This document shows positions 7,158 through 31,924 of a stretch of 64,000 nucleotides of DNA, piece by piece. The number at the start of each line of letters is the position of its first letter. The first letter of the stretch is position 1. Origin of the DNA: a bacterium (GTDB taxonomy: Bacteria > Cyanobacteriota > Vampirovibrionia > Gastranaerophilales > Gastranaerophilaceae). The notes under the pieces are model-generated. The model was not told the origin of the DNA and did not search any database. It saw only the letters and a list, made by a program, of their open reading frames with translations. Made by a program: the position numbers and the translations under genes. The DNA lies in the NCBI GenBank assembly GCA_017470815.1, contig JAFUXT010000030.1, positions 24,561-88,560 of the forward strand. Reading direction: 5' to 3'.

Positions 7158-7417
7158 TGCCGTGCTCCACGGGGTTGTTGCGAACTCTCGACCCGAAGCG
7201 AATGCGGGGTGCAGAGCCTGTTGTGAGGGCTTTATGAGTGCGTAAGAATTTAATGAAATTGTTGATATTAACACTTATGGCGGCGTGAAATTTCGAACCG
7301 TGTCAGGGGGGAAACTCAGCAGCACTAAGAAAACCTTTACGGGTGTCATATTTGTTAAAGTAGAGGACATTAAAGGATTTCGTATTTGTAAATTTCGATA
7401 GACAGTGGCACGGTTTT
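7158..7417 (+). ncRNA. ffs: Signal recognition particle RNA, long (Alu-domain, Bacillus scRNA-like) type
   Basis: 5' GCCGTGCTCCACGGGG matches the B. subtilis scRNA GCCGUGCUAAGCGGGG. Domain IV CCGTGTCAGGGGGGAAACTCAGCAGCACTAAG matches CCAUGUCAGGUCCGGAAGGAAGCAGCAUUAAG, with a GNRA loop and AGCAGC. 3' end GACAGTGGCACGGT-TTT matches GACAGAAGGUGCACGGU. Length about 260 nt. Confidence 0.85.
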
Positions 7418-25127: not shown

Positions 25128-27656
25128 TTATAACTCGTGCAGGTTTTCCGTTAAAAACTTTGTACGCTTAATATCGAACATAACCTCAGGCGCAATGACA
25201 CTCATAAGCGCATCTGCTCTCAAAGGAGGTATTGCCGTACTTTTACCTGCTTTTAATACTATAAACAGACTTCCGCTCTCAAATCTGTACTCTCCGATTG
25301 AATGCTTATAGTCTATTGTTTTGTCTAAACCTTTTTTAGTTTTTTTGTCAATAAAAATATTTTCAGACTCCAAAACTCTGAGAGTATTATACACGAATTG
25401 ACCAAAATCGTAAACACTTTCGTCAAAAATCTTAATCCGATATTCTGCCCAATAGACTTCTTCCTCAATAGCAGGCGCACTTGTATCAATTTGTTTTACC
25501 TCAATAATTTCAGAACCCTGCGGAAGAACTTTTTGAATTTCATTTCTTACATAATCAATATCGGCATTTTCCCATAAACAAATATCCACAAGTTCCGTTT
25601 CACTTTCGCAGAACAAAGGAAGCGCAACACCCATTGATATTTTCATTTTCGGATTATAGCCGTAGGAATAGGCAACTTTAAGATTTGCTCTCTGCATTGC
25701 TTTAAGAAAAGTATTTTGCCAATCAAGATGAGAAAAATATCTTAAAATTCCTGTTTTTGTAAGTTTTAACCTGTATCGGAAAACAGGTTTAATATCTTTT
25801 TGGTCTATATCTTCAATTTGTCTTTTAGGTGCAGATGCAAGCAGTTGAGCCTTATCAGATGCAACAAAATGTTCTGCAATAACTTTATGAGTATTGAAAT
25901 TCTTACATACTCCGCAATTTACACACTGCGTCTGACATGTCGGAACGACATGAGAAGAATTTTCATCAACCTCAAACGCCTTGTTATATTCGTTAATTAA
26001 CCAATCTTTATCTAAACCGACATTTATAAAATCCCAAGGCAGGGGTTTATTCAAATCATATTGTTTTTGTGCAAGTTCTTCAAGATTTAACCCACATTCC
26101 TGTGCAGTTTCATTCCACAGTTTCCAACTGAAATTTTCACCCCATGATGCAAGATAAGAGCCTTTTTTATAAAGCGCCTCAATAAATTTGCACAAAGATG
26201 CATCCCCTCTTGTTAAAACCGCTTCAAGTAAAGACAAATATTTGTCACTGTAATTTATTTTTACGCATTTAACTTTTTTAATACGCTCCATAAGATAATC
26301 AATATGCGCCTTGACTTCGTCTAAAGACATTTGCGGACACCACTGAAACGGAGTAAAAGGTTTCGGGACAAAAATTGACAGCGTACATGTCAGTTCAAGA
26401 GTATGATTTAACCCTTTTTCCTTTTTTATAAGTTTTGATTTATACCTCAAACCCGACAGAAGATTTGCCATTTCGTCCATATCTTCAATGGTTTCAGTCG
26501 GCAAACCGCAAATAAAATAAAGTTTTACACGACTCCAGCCATTCTCATACAAAGTCAAAACAGCATTTTCAATTTGCTCTTTTGTTATATTTTTTTTAAT
26601 TACATCCCGAAGCCTTTGGCTACCTGCCTCAGGTGCAAGCGTCATAGTCGATTTGCGAACGCTTTGAACAAGATTTGCGAGTTCAAGATTAAATCCGTCA
26701 ATTCTTTGACTCGGCAAAGTAACAGATACTTTTATCTCATTAAAATCAAGACTGAGTTCTTTTATAACTTCATTAATATTGGCATAATCGTTCGATGACA
26801 GCGACAGCAGAGAATATTCCTCATATCCCGTATTTTTTACAAGTTCCTTTGAAATATTTATAATATCCTGCGCACTGCGTTCTCTGACAGGTAAAGTTAC
26901 ATGCCCCGGCTGACAAAAACGACACATCCTTCCGCAGCCTCTACGTATTTCAATTACTGCCCTATCCTGAATTGATGATGAAAACGGAATAGGGTATGAT
27001 GTTAACGCAGTATCAAGTTTTAACTGCGCAATTCGCTTGTCAACTTGTCCGCCAACCAACTTTGACCAACGCCCGTTGGCGGGGTTTTCGCATAATTTTT
27101 TAATCCGTTCTTTTCTTGGCAGGCCTTTTGTTTCCTCTAGAATTTTGCAGATTTCTATAATTGTATCTTCACCATCACCTATCGTAAATACATCAATAAA
27201 ATCAGACATTGGCAAAGGATTAAATGTACAAGGACCTCCTGCAATAATTATCGGATCATCATCAGTCCTATCTTCATTTCTGTAAGGAATACCTGCCATT
27301 TCAAGCATTTTTAAAACAGTCGGATAAGCCATTTCATACTGCAAAGAAAACCCAACAGCATCAAAATCTTTTAATGACCTTTTTGATTCAAGCGCATACA
27401 AAGGCTCAGGAACAAAATCTTTTTCAGGAGCATAAACTCTGTCACACATATAGTCAGGCTCTTTATTTATAAGTTCATAAAGAACTCTGACACCTAAATT
27501 TGAAATGCCTATTTCATATTTATCCGGAAAAGCCATTGCAACACGAACTTTTGCAGTGTCAAAATCTTTGTTATGCGACAAAAACTCGCCCCCTACATAC
27601 TGGTAAGGCTTAAAACATTTATACAAACTCTCATTATATTTCGTAAAAAAACACAT
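25128..27656 (-). CDS. B12-binding-domain radical SAM protein fused to a DUF2344-like C-terminal domain (TIGR03960 + TIGR03936-like, from memory)
   Basis: CxxxCxxC in RRGCGRMCRFCQPG. N-terminal B12-binding-like fold. C-terminal FRYRLKLTKTGILRYFSHLD block. 842 aa, directly upstream of RNase E/G. Confidence 0.8.
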   Translation of the reverse strand: MCFFTKYNESLYKCFKPYQYVGGEFLSHNKDFDTAKVRVAMAFPDKYEIGISNLGVRVLYELINKEPDYMCDRVYAPEKDFVPEPLYALESKRSLKDFDAVGFSLQYEMAYPTVLKMLEMAGIPYRNEDRTDDDPIIIAGGPCTFNPLPMSDFIDVFTIGDGEDTIIEICKILEETKGLPRKERIKKLCENPANGRWSKLVGGQVDKRIAQLKLDTALTSYPIPFSSSIQDRAVIEIRRGCGRMCRFCQPGHVTLPVRERSAQDIINISKELVKNTGYEEYSLLSLSSNDYANINEVIKELSLDFNEIKVSVTLPSQRIDGFNLELANLVQSVRKSTMTLAPEAGSQRLRDVIKKNITKEQIENAVLTLYENGWSRVKLYFICGLPTETIEDMDEMANLLSGLRYKSKLIKKEKGLNHTLELTCTLSIFVPKPFTPFQWCPQMSLDEVKAHIDYLMERIKKVKCVKINYSDKYLSLLEAVLTRGDASLCKFIEALYKKGSYLASWGENFSWKLWNETAQECGLNLEELAQKQYDLNKPLPWDFINVGLDKDWLINEYNKAFEVDENSSHVVPTCQTQCVNCGVCKNFNTHKVIAEHFVASDKAQLLASAPKRQIEDIDQKDIKPVFRYRLKLTKTGILRYFSHLDWQNTFLKAMQRANLKVAYSYGYNPKMKISMGVALPLFCESETELVDICLWENADIDYVRNEIQKVLPQGSEIIEVKQIDTSAPAIEEEVYWAEYRIKIFDESVYDFGQFVYNTLRVLESENIFIDKKTKKGLDKTIDYKHSIGEYRFESGSLFIVLKAGKSTAIPPLRADALMSVIAPEVMFDIKRTKFLTENLHEL

Positions 27657-27672
27657 TTAAAACTTTCTGTGG

Positions 27673-27742
27673 GAGATTCTTCGGCATTCGTCATTCTGAG
27701 CCTTTAGGCGAAGAATCTCATAATAAAACGCCTCAGAATGAC
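27673..27742. repeat. Interleaved-inverted-repeat element, copy 1 (order A-B-A'-B')
   Basis: A GAGATTCTTCG 27673-27683, B GTCATTCTGAG 27690-27700, A' CGAAGAATCTC 27709-27719, B' CTCAGAATGAC 27732-27742. Both pairs are perfect 11-mers. Confidence 0.8.
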
Positions 27743-27743
27743 A

Positions 27744-28091
27744 TTAAACTATCTCATTCGGAAAATATTTGTTTATCTCAATAATAGTCCCGTCTAAAGT
27801 ATTTTCCTCAAAAGATTTCATAAATTTGAACAAATCTTCATTCGGCACATCATAAGAATAAAGTACAATTTCGCCATCAACTTCTCGCATTACAGTCACC
27901 ATATAATGACAAGCGCAAGCATATTTTAACAGATAATCTTTGCGGAATTTTTTGCCGTTAGAGTCCTTTTTGACTTTGACATAACCAAATCCGGCATAAT
28001 ATTTTATCCGCTTTTGGTCTTTTTCAGGCAATTTGTTCCTGCTATGGTTTGAAAATAAATTTATAACCTTTTTATTAATTTCTTCAGACAC
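27744..28091 (-). CDS. Hypothetical protein, 115 aa
   Basis: GTG start with a strong SD (GGAGGG 6 nt upstream). No family recognised. Confidence 0.5.
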   Translation of the reverse strand: MSEEINKKVINLFSNHSRNKLPEKDQKRIKYYAGFGYVKVKKDSNGKKFRKDYLLKYACACHYMVTVMREVDGEIVLYSYDVPNEDLFKFMKSFEENTLDGTIIEINKYFPNEIV

Positions 28092-28136
28092 AAATATCCC
28101 TCCAAAATATATTAAACAATATATTTAAATTAAAGT

Positions 28137-28439
28137 CTATTTGTTAAGATTTTTCATAAACTTCTGAACTTTTAATGCAGTTTCACGCCTGATATCATCC
28201 GGACAAAGCCTTAAATACTCAATGGCATGAGAAACTTTGATATTTTTATCATACCAACGACGCAGAATGTAATTGTACTGATCTTCAAGACTCATATTTG
28301 GAAGTTCAACATCTTTTAACAAGTCGTCAATGATATATTCTGCGCATCTGACCTGATATTCTTCAGGCATCTTTTCCATATCATTGATTGTTTTACTGAC
28401 TACCGCATCAGCATCATACCAGCGTTTGAACATGTTCAT
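28137..28439 (-). CDS. Hypothetical protein, 100 aa, with an internal two-fold RWYD repeat
   Basis: ATG with SD GAGGA. KRWYDADAVVSKTINDMEKMPEE and RRWYDKNIKVSHAIEYLRLCPDD are recognisably duplicated halves. Confidence 0.5.
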   Translation of the reverse strand: MNMFKRWYDADAVVSKTINDMEKMPEEYQVRCAEYIIDDLLKDVELPNMSLEDQYNYILRRWYDKNIKVSHAIEYLRLCPDDIRRETALKVQKFMKNLNK

Positions 28440-28462
28440 TATTTGTTCCTCGTGTTTTTGAT

Positions 28463-28529
28463 GAGATTCTTCGCTCCTGTCATTCAGAGGCTTTAGCCGA
28501 AGAATCTTATATACACCGCTCAGAATGAC
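28463..28529. repeat. Interleaved-inverted-repeat element, copy 2 (order A-B-A'-B')
   Basis: A GAGATTCTTCG 28463-28473, B GTCATTCAGAG 28479-28489, A' CGAAGAATCT 28498-28507, B' CTCAGAATGAC 28519-28529. There is one substitution in B. Confidence 0.75.
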
Positions 28530-28641
28530 GAAATGGAATATATTGTTAAGTTTATTTAACCAAATTTTTCAAAAAAAGTAAATTATTTTACGAAAAAATA
28601 CTTTATATAAATGTAAAGGTTATAAGTAGGTTATAAATTTT

Positions 28642-29106
28642 ATGGACAATAGTATTATATACGGATTAAGAAATCCTGCAATGACGGAAGATATCGGAAT
28701 GTCAATGATAGAAAGACAATATCCGACAAATATTACACCGTTAGGTTATACTCCGGCTAATATTACAAATAAATCCGCATATTTTGAACAGCCTTATGCT
28801 GATACATTCCAAACAAAACGCGAAAAAGAATATTCTACAATCAAAAAAGTGCTTGTCGGTTTAGGTGTTGTTGCCCTTGGAATTTTAGGAATAAGAAAAG
28901 GTACAAAAGGAATTAAAAATGCATACAATTACGTCAAAAATTTGTTTAAAGGCGGAAAGACCACACCTGTTACACCAACACCGGGCACAGGTTCGGTAAA
29001 AAATGTTTTTACCAAATGCAAAAATAAGGTAGTTAATGTGTTCAACAAAGGTAAAAACGGTATTACAAGTTTATTTAATAAAATTAAAACAAAAATTTCC
29101 CCGTAA
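28642..29106 (+). CDS. Hypothetical single-TM protein with a K/G/T-rich C-terminal tail
   Basis: 154-aa ORF. TM VLVGLGVVALGILGI followed by RKGTKGIKNAYNYVKNLF. A terminator follows. Confidence 0.5.
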   Translation: MDNSIIYGLRNPAMTEDIGMSMIERQYPTNITPLGYTPANITNKSAYFEQPYADTFQTKREKEYSTIKKVLVGLGVVALGILGIRKGTKGIKNAYNYVKNLFKGGKTTPVTPTPGTGSVKNVFTKCKNKVVNVFNKGKNGITSLFNKIKTKISP

Positions 29107-29132
29107 TAGAAAATAGTTAGTGTGATTTATGT

Positions 29133-29167
29133 AGGTAGGATTTTATAAAATTCTACCTTTCTTTTTG
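29133..29167 (+). terminator. Rho-independent terminator
   Basis: AGGTAGGATTTT-AT-AAAATTCTACCT 12-bp stem (one G-U pair) followed by TTCTTTTTG. Confidence 0.6.
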
Positions 29168-29186
29168 TTTATGATAAAATAAAATC

Positions 29187-29254
29187 GTCATTCTGAGCGA
29201 ATGTTATGAGATTCTTCGGGCGATGCCCTCAGAATGACACAAGCGAAGAATCTC
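29187..29254. repeat. Interleaved-inverted-repeat element, copy 3 (inverted orientation, order B-A-B'-A')
   Basis: B 29187-29197, A 29208-29218, B' 29228-29238, A' 29244-29254. All four arms are perfect 11-mers. Ends 23 nt before the yajQ ATG. Confidence 0.8.
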
Positions 29255-29277
29255 CTTTAAAATAAGAGGGTAATATT

Positions 29278-29778
29278 ATGGCTAAAGATTGCAGTTTTGA
29301 TATTGTATCAGAGTACGACAAACAGGAAGTTGTTAATGCGGTAGAGCAGGTAAAAAAAGAACTTGCTTCACGTTTTGATTTTAAAAACTCAAAATCAACA
29401 GTTGAACTCGAAGAAGGAAAAGCAATTACAATCACAACCGAAGACGAGATGAAACTGCGCAACATCAATGACATCTTGCAGTCAAAATTTTCTAAAAGAA
29501 ATCTGAGCCTCAAAATATTAGACCCGCAAAAAGTTGAAAATGCCTTAGGCGGTAATGTTCGTCAGGTAGTAAATCTTAAAAAAGGTTTAACTCAAGAACT
29601 TGCAAAAAAGATTACAAATGATATTAAAAACACAAAACTAAAAGTTCAGGCATCTATTCAGGGCGAACAAATCAGAGTTTCAGGCAAAAGCAGAGATGAT
29701 TTGCAGGCAGTAATTCAGGTTATCAGACAGAACGAAGATAACTACAATACACCTTTGCAATTCACTAATTACAGATAA
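29278..29778 (+). CDS. yajQ: YajQ-family nucleotide-binding protein (UPF0234)
   Basis: SFDIVSEYDKQEVVNAVEQVKKELASRFDFK and the C-terminal LQFTNYR are typical of YajQ. 166 aa. Confidence 0.85.
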   Translation: MAKDCSFDIVSEYDKQEVVNAVEQVKKELASRFDFKNSKSTVELEEGKAITITTEDEMKLRNINDILQSKFSKRNLSLKILDPQKVENALGGNVRQVVNLKKGLTQELAKKITNDIKNTKLKVQASIQGEQIRVSGKSRDDLQAVIQVIRQNEDNYNTPLQFTNYR

Positions 29779-29796
29779 ACAGTAAAGGAAACATCA

Positions 29797-31023
29797 ATGA
29801 CAACAGAAATCAGACAAGAATTTATAGATCAAGCAATGTATATAGCAAGAAATGCAGAAGTATTACCGGGCGGAGTTGAAGAACTTGCAGCAAAATTGCA
29901 ACACGCAAGCGATACTAATACTCCTTTGCGAGTAAAACTCGGTATGGACCCGACAAGACCGGATTTGCATTTAGGACATACGGTCGTAATGAGGAAATTG
30001 AAAGAATTTCAGGCTTTAGGGCATAAAATTGTGCTTTTGGTTGGCGGCGCAACCGCTATGATAGGCGACCCGTCAGGCAAATCCGAAACAAGACCTGCGC
30101 TTACAAAAGAACAGGTTGAAGAAAACGCAAAAACATACTTTGAGCAAATGGCTAAAGTTCTTGATGTTTCAAAGGCGGAAGTCGTTAATAACGCAGATTG
30201 GTTACATCCGATGAAGTTTACCGAACTTCTTGCACTTGCAGGAAAAGTAACCGTTGCACAAATGATGACAAGAGATGATTTTGCAAAACGCTATGCCGAA
30301 GGTAAACCTATTTCTATTGTTGAATTTTATTATCCTTTGATGCAGGCTTATGATTCGGTTGCGATTGATGCGGATATCGAATTGGGCGGGACAGACCAGA
30401 GATTTAATACTTTGTTAGGCCGTGATATTCAGAGTGCTTACGGCAAAAAATACCCTCAACTTGTTGTACTTTTACCGCTTTTGGAAGGTACTGACGGGGT
30501 TGTTAAGATGTCAAAAACTTACCCGGAACACTGCATATCCCTAACCGACAGCGCAAAGGATATGTTTGGCAAGTTGATGAGTATTCCTGACAATATGATT
30601 ACAAGATATTTCAGTTTATTGACAAATACTTCAAAAGAAGATTTGGAACGCTATGACAGAGAAATTTCTGATGGTTCAATCAACCCTCGTAATTTGAAAA
30701 TGCAACTTGCTCATACAATTACAGAAGAATATCATGGCAAAGACGGCGCAGACAAAGCGCAGGAAGATTTTATCAATGTTGTTTCAAATAAAGGTATTCC
30801 TGATGATATAGCGCAAGTAAAAGTTGAAAACGGCAAAGGGATTTTAGACTTAATTGTCGAACTCGGTTTTACATCAAGTAAAGGTGAAGCAAAGCGTTTA
30901 ATTGCGGGCGGCGGAGTAAAAATTGACGGAGAAAAAATTGCCGATATGACCTATATCGTTGAATTTGATGAAAGTGTAGTATTACAGGCAGGAAAGCGCA
31001 AATTTGCAAAACTGGTGCACTAA
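29797..31023 (+). CDS. tyrS: Tyrosine--tRNA ligase (type 2, with C-terminal S4 domain)
   Basis: HIGH-type PDLHLGHTV and KMSKS-type [16 protein letters not shown]-terminal S4-like [16 protein letters not shown]. Confidence 0.92.
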
Positions 31024-31696: not shown

Positions 31697-31769
31697 TACC
31701 CTCTCCCGAATTTGTAAATTCACCTTTGGCTCATTAACAAATTCTACCCTTTCCCAAAGGTAGAGGGGC
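31697..31769. repeat. Composite palindromic element with CCCTCT...AGAGGG outer arms
   Basis: CCCTCT 31699-31704 pairs with AGAGGG 31762-31767. Inner 8-bp pair GAATTTGT / ACAAATTC. ACCTTT / AAAGGT. Intergenic, after cysE. Confidence 0.35.
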
Positions 31770-31798
31770 ATAGATAAAAGGCAAAGATAAATATTTAA

Positions 31799-31850: not shown

Positions 31851-31924
31851 GTCATGCTGAACTTGTTTCAGCATCTCATCCCAAGGGCGTTAAGCGTGAG
31901 ATTCCGAAACGATTTCGGAATAAC
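31851..31924. repeat. Variant of the GTCAT.CTGA / GAGATTC element in which each arm forms its own local hairpin
   Basis: GTCATGCTGAA-CTTG-TTTCAGCATCTC at 31851-31877. GAGATTCCGAAACGATTTCGGAATAAC at 31898-31924. Confidence 0.5.

Follow-up and report, generated by a model that had tools for sequence, protein, structure and literature searches.

Ssn-related motifs (SRMs) are DNA hairpin repeats that resemble repetitive extragenic palindromic (REP) sequences; they consist of a GTC tag, a short palindrome and a C placed directly after the palindrome. Described here are three compact repeat elements, each ~70 nt in length, that probably consist of paired SRMs. They are situated in a 64,000-nt stretch of a genome assigned to the Gastranaerophilaceae (assembly GCA_017470815.1, contig JAFUXT010000030.1, positions 24,561 to 88,560), and this whole stretch is referred to below as the window. 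SRMs, which include the NTS sequence of Neisseria (CGTCATTCCCGCGMAVGCGGGAATCYRG), have been characterized as hairpin repeats that flank the gene ssnA (Chenal et al. 2025, Nat Commun, PMC11893778). The SsnA protein is a 94-aa single-domain GIY-YIG nuclease that specifically binds and cuts NTS/SRM sequences, and it acts only on single-stranded DNA, not on double-stranded DNA or RNA (PMC11893778). Cleavage by the enzyme, which binds the folded hairpin, falls on a single strand, a few nucleotides upstream of the GTC tag. The GTC that precedes the palindrome is important to cutting and the C that follows it to binding, and an SRM that is split across two oligonucleotides is still cut by SsnA (PMC11893778).

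A second point of comparison is found in the REP sequences and bacterial interspersed mosaic elements (BIMEs), and in the REP doublets that form hairpins (REPINs) together with the REP-associated tyrosine transposases (RAYTs) (Bertels and Rainey 2011, PMC3116915). The elements of the window share with these systems short imperfect palindromes with a non-palindromic tag, and a doublet that is recurrent and apparently propagated. An enzyme gene flanked by the repeats, the absence of target-site duplications and a location in operon spacers are also held in common with REPIN-RAYT systems (PMC3116915). There are differences, however. The enzyme is of the GIY-YIG class and not a Y1 HUH protein as in RAYT, and the tag is GTC(AT) rather than GTAG/CGTC. 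In addition, a REPIN has two side-by-side inverted REPs whose perfect pairs nest, whereas here one unit is inside the loop of the other and the perfect pairs interleave. The insertion sequence IS1397 inserts into the palindromic units of BIMEs (refs 41-42 cited in PMC3116915). The elements described here are similar in that a hairpin loop houses another element, although the insert is itself a similar hairpin and its origin by insertion is only surmised. In the heterocystous cyanobacteria, a sister lineage, very short mobile repeats are reportedly embedded in one another, according to Elhai et al. 2008.

Each of the three elements has four arms of 11 nt in the order A-B-A'-B', where A is GAGATTCTTCG, B is GTCATTCTGAG, A' is CGAAGAATCTC and B' is CTCAGAATGAC (Table 1). 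A preliminary description of the locus had placed the three four-arm elements at these positions, with copy 3 inverted, and shuffled sequences bear this out. Arm A is matched six times in the window where 0.76 matches are expected and arm B seven times where 0.62 are expected, and in neither case does any of 100 shuffles reach the observed number. The clustering of three copies inside 1.6 kb has a p of ~0.002 if placement is uniform, and there is no fourth copy of the four-arm element in the rest of the 64-kb window. Copy 2 is slightly decayed: its B arm is GTCATTCAGAG, with one substitution, and its A' arm is CGAAGAATCTT, which gives a G.T pair. The three spacers measure 6/8/12 nt in copy 1, 5/8/10 in copy 2 and 5/9/10 in copy 3; the lengths first given for copies 1 and 3 stand, and the third spacer of copy 2, first given as 11, is 10. 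All copies are intergenic, as had been stated, and the coordinates of the open reading frames (ORFs) agree with this. A search of Rfam at the gathering score and at E up to 10 finds nothing relevant, and positions 27400-29500 give chance-level matches only (E ≥1.4).

The arms can be read as the parts of one basic unit, GTC-ATTCTGAG-loop-CGAAGAAT-C, in which B is GTC followed by ATTCTGAG, and A' is CGAAGAAT followed by C and TC. With NTS the unit has GTCATTC...GAATC in common, and it is one of the Ssn-related motifs of PMC11893778, which supplies the functional description that was at first thought not to exist. The palindrome of the SRM is here ATTCT...AGAAT, to which a stem extension and a loop of variable sequence are added. 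A complete forward SRM (B-loop-A') sits in the loop of a second SRM of the opposite strand, A...B' being the reverse complement of that second SRM. Because the nesting is between opposite strands, each DNA strand carries one SRM, which is compact on one strand and interrupted by a 48-nt insert on the other. Each element is thus probably a nested doublet of Ssn-related motifs, i.e. a DNA hairpin repeat and not an RNA pseudoknot. In both architecture and sequence the nested doublet is a variant not seen before in the recently described repeat/nuclease system, and it occurs in a lineage where the system was previously unreported.

The family extends well beyond the window. A genome collection was scanned with the pattern A-gap-B-gap-A', the fourth arm B' being left out of the pattern, and at least 116 further stretches were found. 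B' is present with two or fewer mismatches in 99 of the 117 scorable matches listed, 7-15 nt after A'. From among the matches listed, 97 unique complete four-arm copies were aligned and used as the sample for covariation analysis. The earlier claim that this is a true repeat family, its arms near-invariant and its spacers variable, is confirmed. The consensus of the 97 copies is TTAT-GAGATTCTTCG-GCTTnnn-GTCATTCTGAG-CGNAG-CGAAGAATCTC-ATAAnnnnnnnGC-CTCAGAATGAC-AA. The tag is highly conserved, with G in 90 of 97 copies and T and C in all 97, as is the C after the palindrome (97 of 97), and the 3' tail varies.

Two candidate structures were scored on this alignment, with shuffled and slid controls. 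One is a nested structure, which has an inner hairpin, B-loop-A', that includes the palindromic middle spacer, and an outer hairpin in which A pairs with B' at 7 of 11 positions and is extended by pairing between spacer 1 and spacer 3. The other is the interleaved pairing A:A' and B:B'. The nested pairing has a covariation score of 0.128 versus 0.053 for shuffled alignments; none of 500 shuffles reaches it, and slid controls give 0.049 or less. Doubly changed cells number 118, compared with 42.8 expected.

The covarying positions are readily located. The outer A...B' hairpin is lengthened by 2-6 covarying bp. The pair that adjoins A/B', between spacer 1 and spacer 3, is GC 63 times and CG 24 times, and the next pair is CG (59), UA (9) or AU (4). 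In the inner hairpin, the loop is first closed by CG (69) or GC (17). Inner stem position 32-53 is UA in 89 cases and CG in six, and the change to CG breaks B:B'. For the two bases that open spacer 1 and the two that close spacer 3, partner-shuffling predicts pairing in 51% and 47% of copies, and the observed values are 91% and 77%. In the window itself, the middle spacer of each copy is palindromic (cctttagg, gctttagc and ggcatcgcc) and spacer 1 begins with bases that pair with those at the end of spacer 3. Both features were overlooked in the preliminary description, which held that the two stems cannot nest. The fold that is maintained in evolution is a hairpin within a hairpin, and the stems do nest. 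Subfamilies with different spacers keep identical arms, and therefore the arms are constrained in sequence and the spacers in pairing only.

The units are also physically associated with genes for a nuclease of the appropriate class, and the advice given at the outset to look for a cognate hairpin-acting enzyme was sound. A blastn search of plasmids with the consensus gives matches in cyanobacterial plasmids. In a Planktothrix plasmid (L231; L numbers denote the loci compared), arrays of units are present on both sides of the gene for a 94-aa 'GIY-YIG nuclease family protein'. Homologs of this protein are found in five of the loci compared, each of them flanked on both sides by GTCAT-tagged hairpins. 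A protein-led search adds five further Melainabacterial contexts that are similarly flanked, with ATTGC/GCAAT stems, where there is either a forward unit upstream and a reverse-complement unit downstream, or units carried on tandem 126-nt repeats. GIY-YIG ORFs of 94-100 aa with GTCAT hairpins on both sides are present in L231, L101, L168, L120, L208/L198, L232-245, L247 and L250. In L231 and L101 the flanking units are exactly of the ATTCT type, and in the remaining loci they belong to sister subfamilies.

The GIY-YIG proteins match Pfam family PF01541. NCBIfam has no specific family for them, and PDB gives a weak UPF0213 match only (1zg2). The protein of L208 is 57% identical over 90 aa (E = 4e-38) to a gonococcal 94-aa ORF that is situated amid NTS copies, and it matches one locus in gonococcal chromosomes. 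The genome from which L208 comes has a syntenic locus 93% identical to that of the window.

Some observations on these nuclease loci and records should be mentioned. In L238-L245 and L253-L255, one Melainabacterial ssnA homolog is between convergent giant ORFs (~2900-5900 aa, with FliD_N/FliD_C matches), and on each side there are two to three tandem 126-nt repeats, each with a GTCATTGCGAG unit. Many database entries for the 96-aa nuclease (P0002-P0009, P0018, P0029 and others) have been called at 105-126 aa; their additional N-terminus seems to result from reading through the upstream SRM and would then be an artefact of annotation. Two PLSDB entries, NZ_CP119140.1 and NZ_CP119142.1, are Neisseria gonorrhoeae records of 2.17 Mb, which is chromosome-sized though they are filed as plasmids; they supplied the ssnA/NTS locus used for comparison.

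Compared with the NTS/dRS3 SRMs of Neisseria, the units show the same 27-30 nt directional hairpin with GTC directly 5' and C directly 3' of the palindrome. As in Neisseria, the loop is variable, the repeats appear to be extragenic, multi-copy and clustered around genes, and units flank single-domain GIY-YIG genes of 94-100 aa on both sides. Unlike NTS, the stem is AT-rich and shorter, and it has a tandem G.A/A.G step. The gonococcal ssnA locus has no nested doublets, its NTS copies being at least 70 nt apart. The nested opposite-strand doublet is not described in PMC11893778, and Melainabacteria, cyanobacterial plasmids and IMG/VR contigs are not mentioned there as SRM hosts (Chenal et al. 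2025).

Complete four-arm copies, among the matches listed, are found only in metagenome-assembled genomes (MAGs) of the Melainabacteria/Gastranaerophilales type, rumen and gut bins included. Three MAGs have at least 13, at least nine and at least seven four-arm copies. Three of the source bins are labelled Muribaculaceae, and their contigs resemble Melainabacteria contigs. The four-arm elements with this label are in L126, L128, L138, L160, L175, L181, L186, L199, L213 and L220. The flanks in L160 are ~76% identical to a Melainabacteria MAG (L147), which suggests mislabelled or mixed bins. Matches in Chloroflexota, Acidobacteriota, Legionella, Nitrospinota and Firmicutes either have no B' or are other composites. 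A Legionella MAG (L141:6544-6831) has a ~290-nt compound palindrome in which two SRM pairs form the centre, with tandem GTCATCCTGAG+14-nt units on one side and their mirrored complements on the other, the arms being freely reused in arrays.

The B-spacer-A' unit alone is common. IMG/VR has 114 stretches of it, in most of which the loop is CGNAG or a longer palindrome, and the nested four-arm pattern has no match in the same database; a phage GenBank collection did not match the element. The inner unit may differ in stem subfamily from the outer one, as ATCCT/AGGAT is found inside ATTCT in six copies. A further subfamily, ATTGC/GCAAT, represents a double compensation of the ATTCT/AGAAT stem. 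The kinship with the 'VILSEAKNL' hairpins of many genomes that had been pointed out from the start is correct. A full-text literature search with arm sequences and peptide strings gave chance primer matches only, and nothing was found in the literature on repeats in Melainabacteria.

Three loci are syntenic with positions 26000-31000 of the window and show how the elements come and go. In L166, where flanks are 95-98% identical, site 2 is empty (no copy 2) and the ortholog of copy 3 is present. L188, with a 93% identical locus, has all three copies. In L173 (~73% identical) there is no copy 1 and the intergenic region at that position measures 12 nt; site 2 has an element with unrelated spacers, and site 3 has a decayed ortholog that has lost the outer arms. 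Elsewhere, pairs of elements with 84-92% identical spacers have flanks of background identity, and some of these pairs are inside one MAG. Whole elements have been copied to unrelated loci, and they have been gained and lost between near-identical genomes. A further difference between L166, the closest relative, and the window concerns another repeat: L166:4612-4772, the ortholog of window 29778-29797, has an extra insert of ~150 nt between yajQ and tyrS that is absent from the window. This insert carries GTGAATGGTGAAT / ATTCACGATTCAC inverted repeats and looks like a different miniature element.

Several points weigh against the reading of the elements as SRM doublets. The published SRM string, HGTCWYN(0-2)YYVSBRHN(0-5)WNVSBRGN(0-2)RNCYNB, matches nowhere in the window and, with both strands considered, in none of the 97 copies, and it finds seven matches in the 1.5-kb gonococcal ssnA locus. 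The string misses the copies because there is too much A and T at their stem positions. Around the sampled Melainabacterial ssnA genes, the SRMs are of the ATTGC type and not of the ATTCT type of the window, and ATTCT-type units flank ssnA only in the Planktothrix plasmid and in one viral contig. As the Melainabacterial genes are flanked by this sister subfamily, they are candidates only for the cognate nuclease of the units of the window. In addition, there is no ssnA homolog or GIY-YIG ORF within the 64-kb window, and the presence of ssnA in this genome is inferred from its relatives.

Two further points concern the fold. The B:B' pairing shows compensation in four copies (B1:B'11 in three and B6:B'6 in one), as interleaved pairing predicts. 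By nearest-neighbour calculation, one perfect stem alone is more stable than the nested fold by ~8-9 kcal/mol. As RNA, the perfect stems have mean energies of about -19.5 or -17.8 versus -11 kcal/mol for the nested fold, and as DNA the means are -11 or -10 versus about -2 kcal/mol. By these calculations, a naked strand without protein may not take the SRM fold and could adopt A:A' or B:B' instead, and such competing stems may impede or gate recognition.

If the elements are SRM doublets, they are predicted to be binding and cleavage substrates of a Melainabacterial Ssn at times when the locus is single-stranded, and replication, transformation and conjugation are proposed as such occasions. 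By analogy with REPINs and RAYTs, the ~70-nt doublet may be the unit that is propagated. An effect on operon transcripts that carry the elements would be secondary.

It might be asked if the nested doublet is more than an accident of insertion. One can picture it as a functional invention, the replicative unit of an Ssn/SRM system and thus a GIY-YIG counterpart of the REPIN, and perhaps also as a substrate that masks itself. In single-stranded DNA, the perfect stems A:A' or B:B', with the predicted advantage in stability given above, could out-compete the SRM hairpins. Self-masking would then gate the cutting of the host's own copies by a resident Ssn, which would amount to a DNA-level switch on self-restriction. 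We regard this elaboration as unlikely.

The location of the elements with respect to genes raises the question of a role in RNA. The elements are mostly in short spacers between genes, and the 97 four-arm copies represent 68 sites once orthologs are collapsed. Where both neighbours are callable, about two thirds of the sites are between co-directional genes. The GTC end of the outer unit is 5-8 nt past a stop codon at 14 of 36 sites, and the opposite end is so placed at 2 of 26 (p = 0.007); isolated units in viral contigs show a similar offset of 6-8 nt from the stop codon. The end opposite the GTC end is ~20 nt before the next start. These findings are in keeping with a REP-like function, in which transcribed stem-loops protect the upstream mRNA or modulate translation termination or initiation at the next gene. 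E. coli REPs 15 nt or less from a stop codon reportedly affect translation, according to Liang, Rudd and Deutscher 2015. However, a placement between stop codon and ribosome-binding site is also what purifying selection would leave after any insertion into a short operon spacer. Moreover, one third of the copies are between convergent or divergent genes, and gains and losses between near-identical genomes are not accompanied by other changes. It should be pointed out also that the invariant unpaired tag positions point to a protein that recognizes sequence and not to a generic stem-loop. A primary role of this type is quite improbable.

The perfect but interleaved complementarity of the arms led originally to the proposal of an RNA H-type pseudoknot or a two-state switch, where A:A' and B:B' form together or alternately in a transcript and regulate the downstream gene. 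The arms are 98% complementary, minimum free energy (MFE) folds of transcripts use one perfect stem, and the three copies in the window share one orientation relative to the downstream start codon. Furthermore, spacer 3 (10-13 nt) exceeds spacer 1 (5-8 nt) in length, as loop geometry prefers on the A-B-A'-B' strand, and the few B:B' compensations noted above are of the expected kind. Nevertheless, the interleaved pairing scores 0.051 versus 0.039 for shuffled alignments. The interleaved arms are near-invariant, with B:B' 98% paired and most A:A' positions fully paired. In the 22 arm pairs there are only five compensated cells, four at the terminal B:B' pair (27-84) and one at position 6 (32-79). 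Pairing is broken at A'10 in nine copies (A:A') and by B6C/A'6G in six (B:B'). The original claim of selection on A:A'/B:B' pairing rather than on sequence is therefore not supported.

The conserved TTAT/ATAA flanks, taken as an extension of A:A', show no covariation (56% versus 50%), and no extension of B:B' is found. The perfect A:A' and B:B' complementarity follows from the inner unit being the reverse complement of the outer unit. MFE folding does not discriminate between the models, since energy alone favours the perfect stems. The orientation bias is weak when orthologous sites are collapsed (20 versus 11, p = 0.15), and in the commoner orientation the mRNA bears the strand with the short third loop. 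The downstream genes are unrelated, no Rfam family is matched, and the family to which the unit belongs acts as single-stranded DNA and is ignored by its protein when presented as RNA (PMC11893778). Mutually exclusive alternative stems are physically possible, but nothing in the comparative data selects for a switch; covariation backs the competing nested fold, and a pseudoknot or RNA switch is highly improbable.

Equally doubtful is that the elements are classical miniature inverted-repeat transposable elements (MITEs), or REPINs, mobilized by a DDE or Y1 (RAYT/IS200) transposase. They are dispersed, intergenic and palindromic, show presence/absence polymorphism and have been copied whole to unrelated loci. 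Nested MITE ends with target-site duplications had been considered in the preliminary description; duplications of 2-5 nt are at the shuffled expectation and none stands above it. This would fit HUH-type transposition of single-stranded DNA, but the ends are inverted at only 7 of 11 positions and a GTAG/CGTC tag is missing. The transposase check that had been recommended, a tblastn search of the window and ~1.9 Mb of sequence (230 loci), found no Y1 or RAYT/IS200 transposase. ORFs clustered within 2.5 kb of the elements include no transposase and no recurrent neighbouring gene family; the top genome ORF cluster near the elements is a pilin whose N-terminus has been spuriously extended across the repeats. 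The enzyme that is physically associated with the units is the GIY-YIG nuclease.

Two other candidates were rejected. An intrinsic terminator is not indicated, as neither end is followed by a T run, the flanks being mixed A/T (consensus AAT... and ATAA...). An integron attC site or gene cassette is likewise discounted: in a relative with 73% identity the three small ORFs are resident genes in synteny, the copies differ in orientation, and a GTTRRRY box is missing.

Table 1. Repeat elements, hairpins and genes in the 25-kb to 32-kb region of the window
Feature	Position	Strand	Remarks
Radical-SAM gene	25128..27656	-	Radical_SAM_N2 + Radical_SAM + DUF2344; start separated by 17 nt from the A arm of copy 1
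Copy 1	27673..27742	+	A 27673-83, B 27690-700, A' 27709-19, B' 27732-42; between ORF115 stop (27744) and radical-SAM start (27656)
Copy 1, inner forward SRM	27690-27719	+	GTCATTCTGAG cctttagg CGAAGAATCTC
Copy 1, outer arms	27673-83 and 27732-42	-	Minus-strand SRM with 48-nt insert in loop
ORF115 (115 aa)	27744-28091	-	No family match; between copies 1 and 2
ORF100 (100 aa)	28137-28439	-	No family match; between copies 1 and 2
Copy 2	28463..28529	+	A 28463-73, B 28479-89, A' 28498-508, B' 28519-29; between divergent starts of ORF100 (28439) and ORF154 (28642)
Copy 2, inner SRM	28479-28508	+	GTCATTCAGAG gctttagc CGAAGAATCTT
ORF154 (154 aa)	28642..29106	+	No family match, one hydrophobic segment; between copies 2 and 3
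Copy 3	29187..29254	-	On the + strand: B 29187-97, A 29208-18, B' 29228-38, A' 29244-54; between ORF154 end (29106) and yajQ start (29278)
Copy 3, inner SRM	29238..29208	-	GTCATTCTGAG ggcatcgcc CGAAGAATCTC
Copy 3, outer SRM	29187-29254	+	
yajQ (DUF520)	29278..29778	+	Start 23 nt from copy 3
SRM-like hairpin, other stem subfamily	31851..31877	+	GTC ATGCTGAA cttg TTCAGCAT C TC (= GTCATGCTGAA cttg TTCAGCATCTC)
SRM-like hairpin, other stem subfamily	31898..31924	-	GTTATTCCGAAA tcg TTTCGGAATCTC; tail-to-tail with 31851-31877

The genes around the elements are listed in Table 1. ORF115 and ORF100 are kept in syntenic relatives and are therefore resident genes, not cassettes. Besides the three copies there are two SRM-like hairpins downstream, at 31851-31877 and 31898-31924, and the region from 27.6 to 31.9 kb is thus a cluster of SRM-type repeats. 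The unit of the first of these hairpins is also found in L137, L138, L188, L191 and L219. A loose scan of the window for a GTY-hairpin-C arrangement is unspecific, with six observed and 11 in shuffles.

Other sequence features of the window are of some interest. After ORF154 and 17 nt upstream of copy 3, positions 29133-29170 have a palindromic sequence and, directly behind it, a run of T (AGGTAGGATTTTATAAAATTCTACCTTTCTTTTTGTTT), which together are likely an intrinsic terminator separate from copy 3. Positions 31700-31770 have a palindromic repeat of G/C blocks (ccctctccc ... ggtagagggg) that adjoins a terminator-like hairpin. Blocks resembling it ('cccctcaccctagccctct') adjoin SRM units in L137 and L147, and the G/C-block repeat may be another dispersed repeat family. 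The bacterial large signal recognition particle RNA (Rfam RF01854, 74.3 bits) is at positions 7160-7413.

SRM/Ssn systems were described only in 2025, and the family now reaches Melainabacteria, cyanobacterial plasmids and uncultivated viral contigs. As the published search motif misses AT-rich stems, current SRM censuses undercount. With respect to annotation, the elements explain common spurious ORFs of the 'VILSEAKNL/RFAQNDK' type. The nested doublets, with their variable loops, split motif and competing stems, are natural test substrates for recognition by Ssn and for the spread of the repeats. A compact nested doublet with one motif per strand dominates in one lineage, where it is copied whole and is gained and lost between near-identical genomes.

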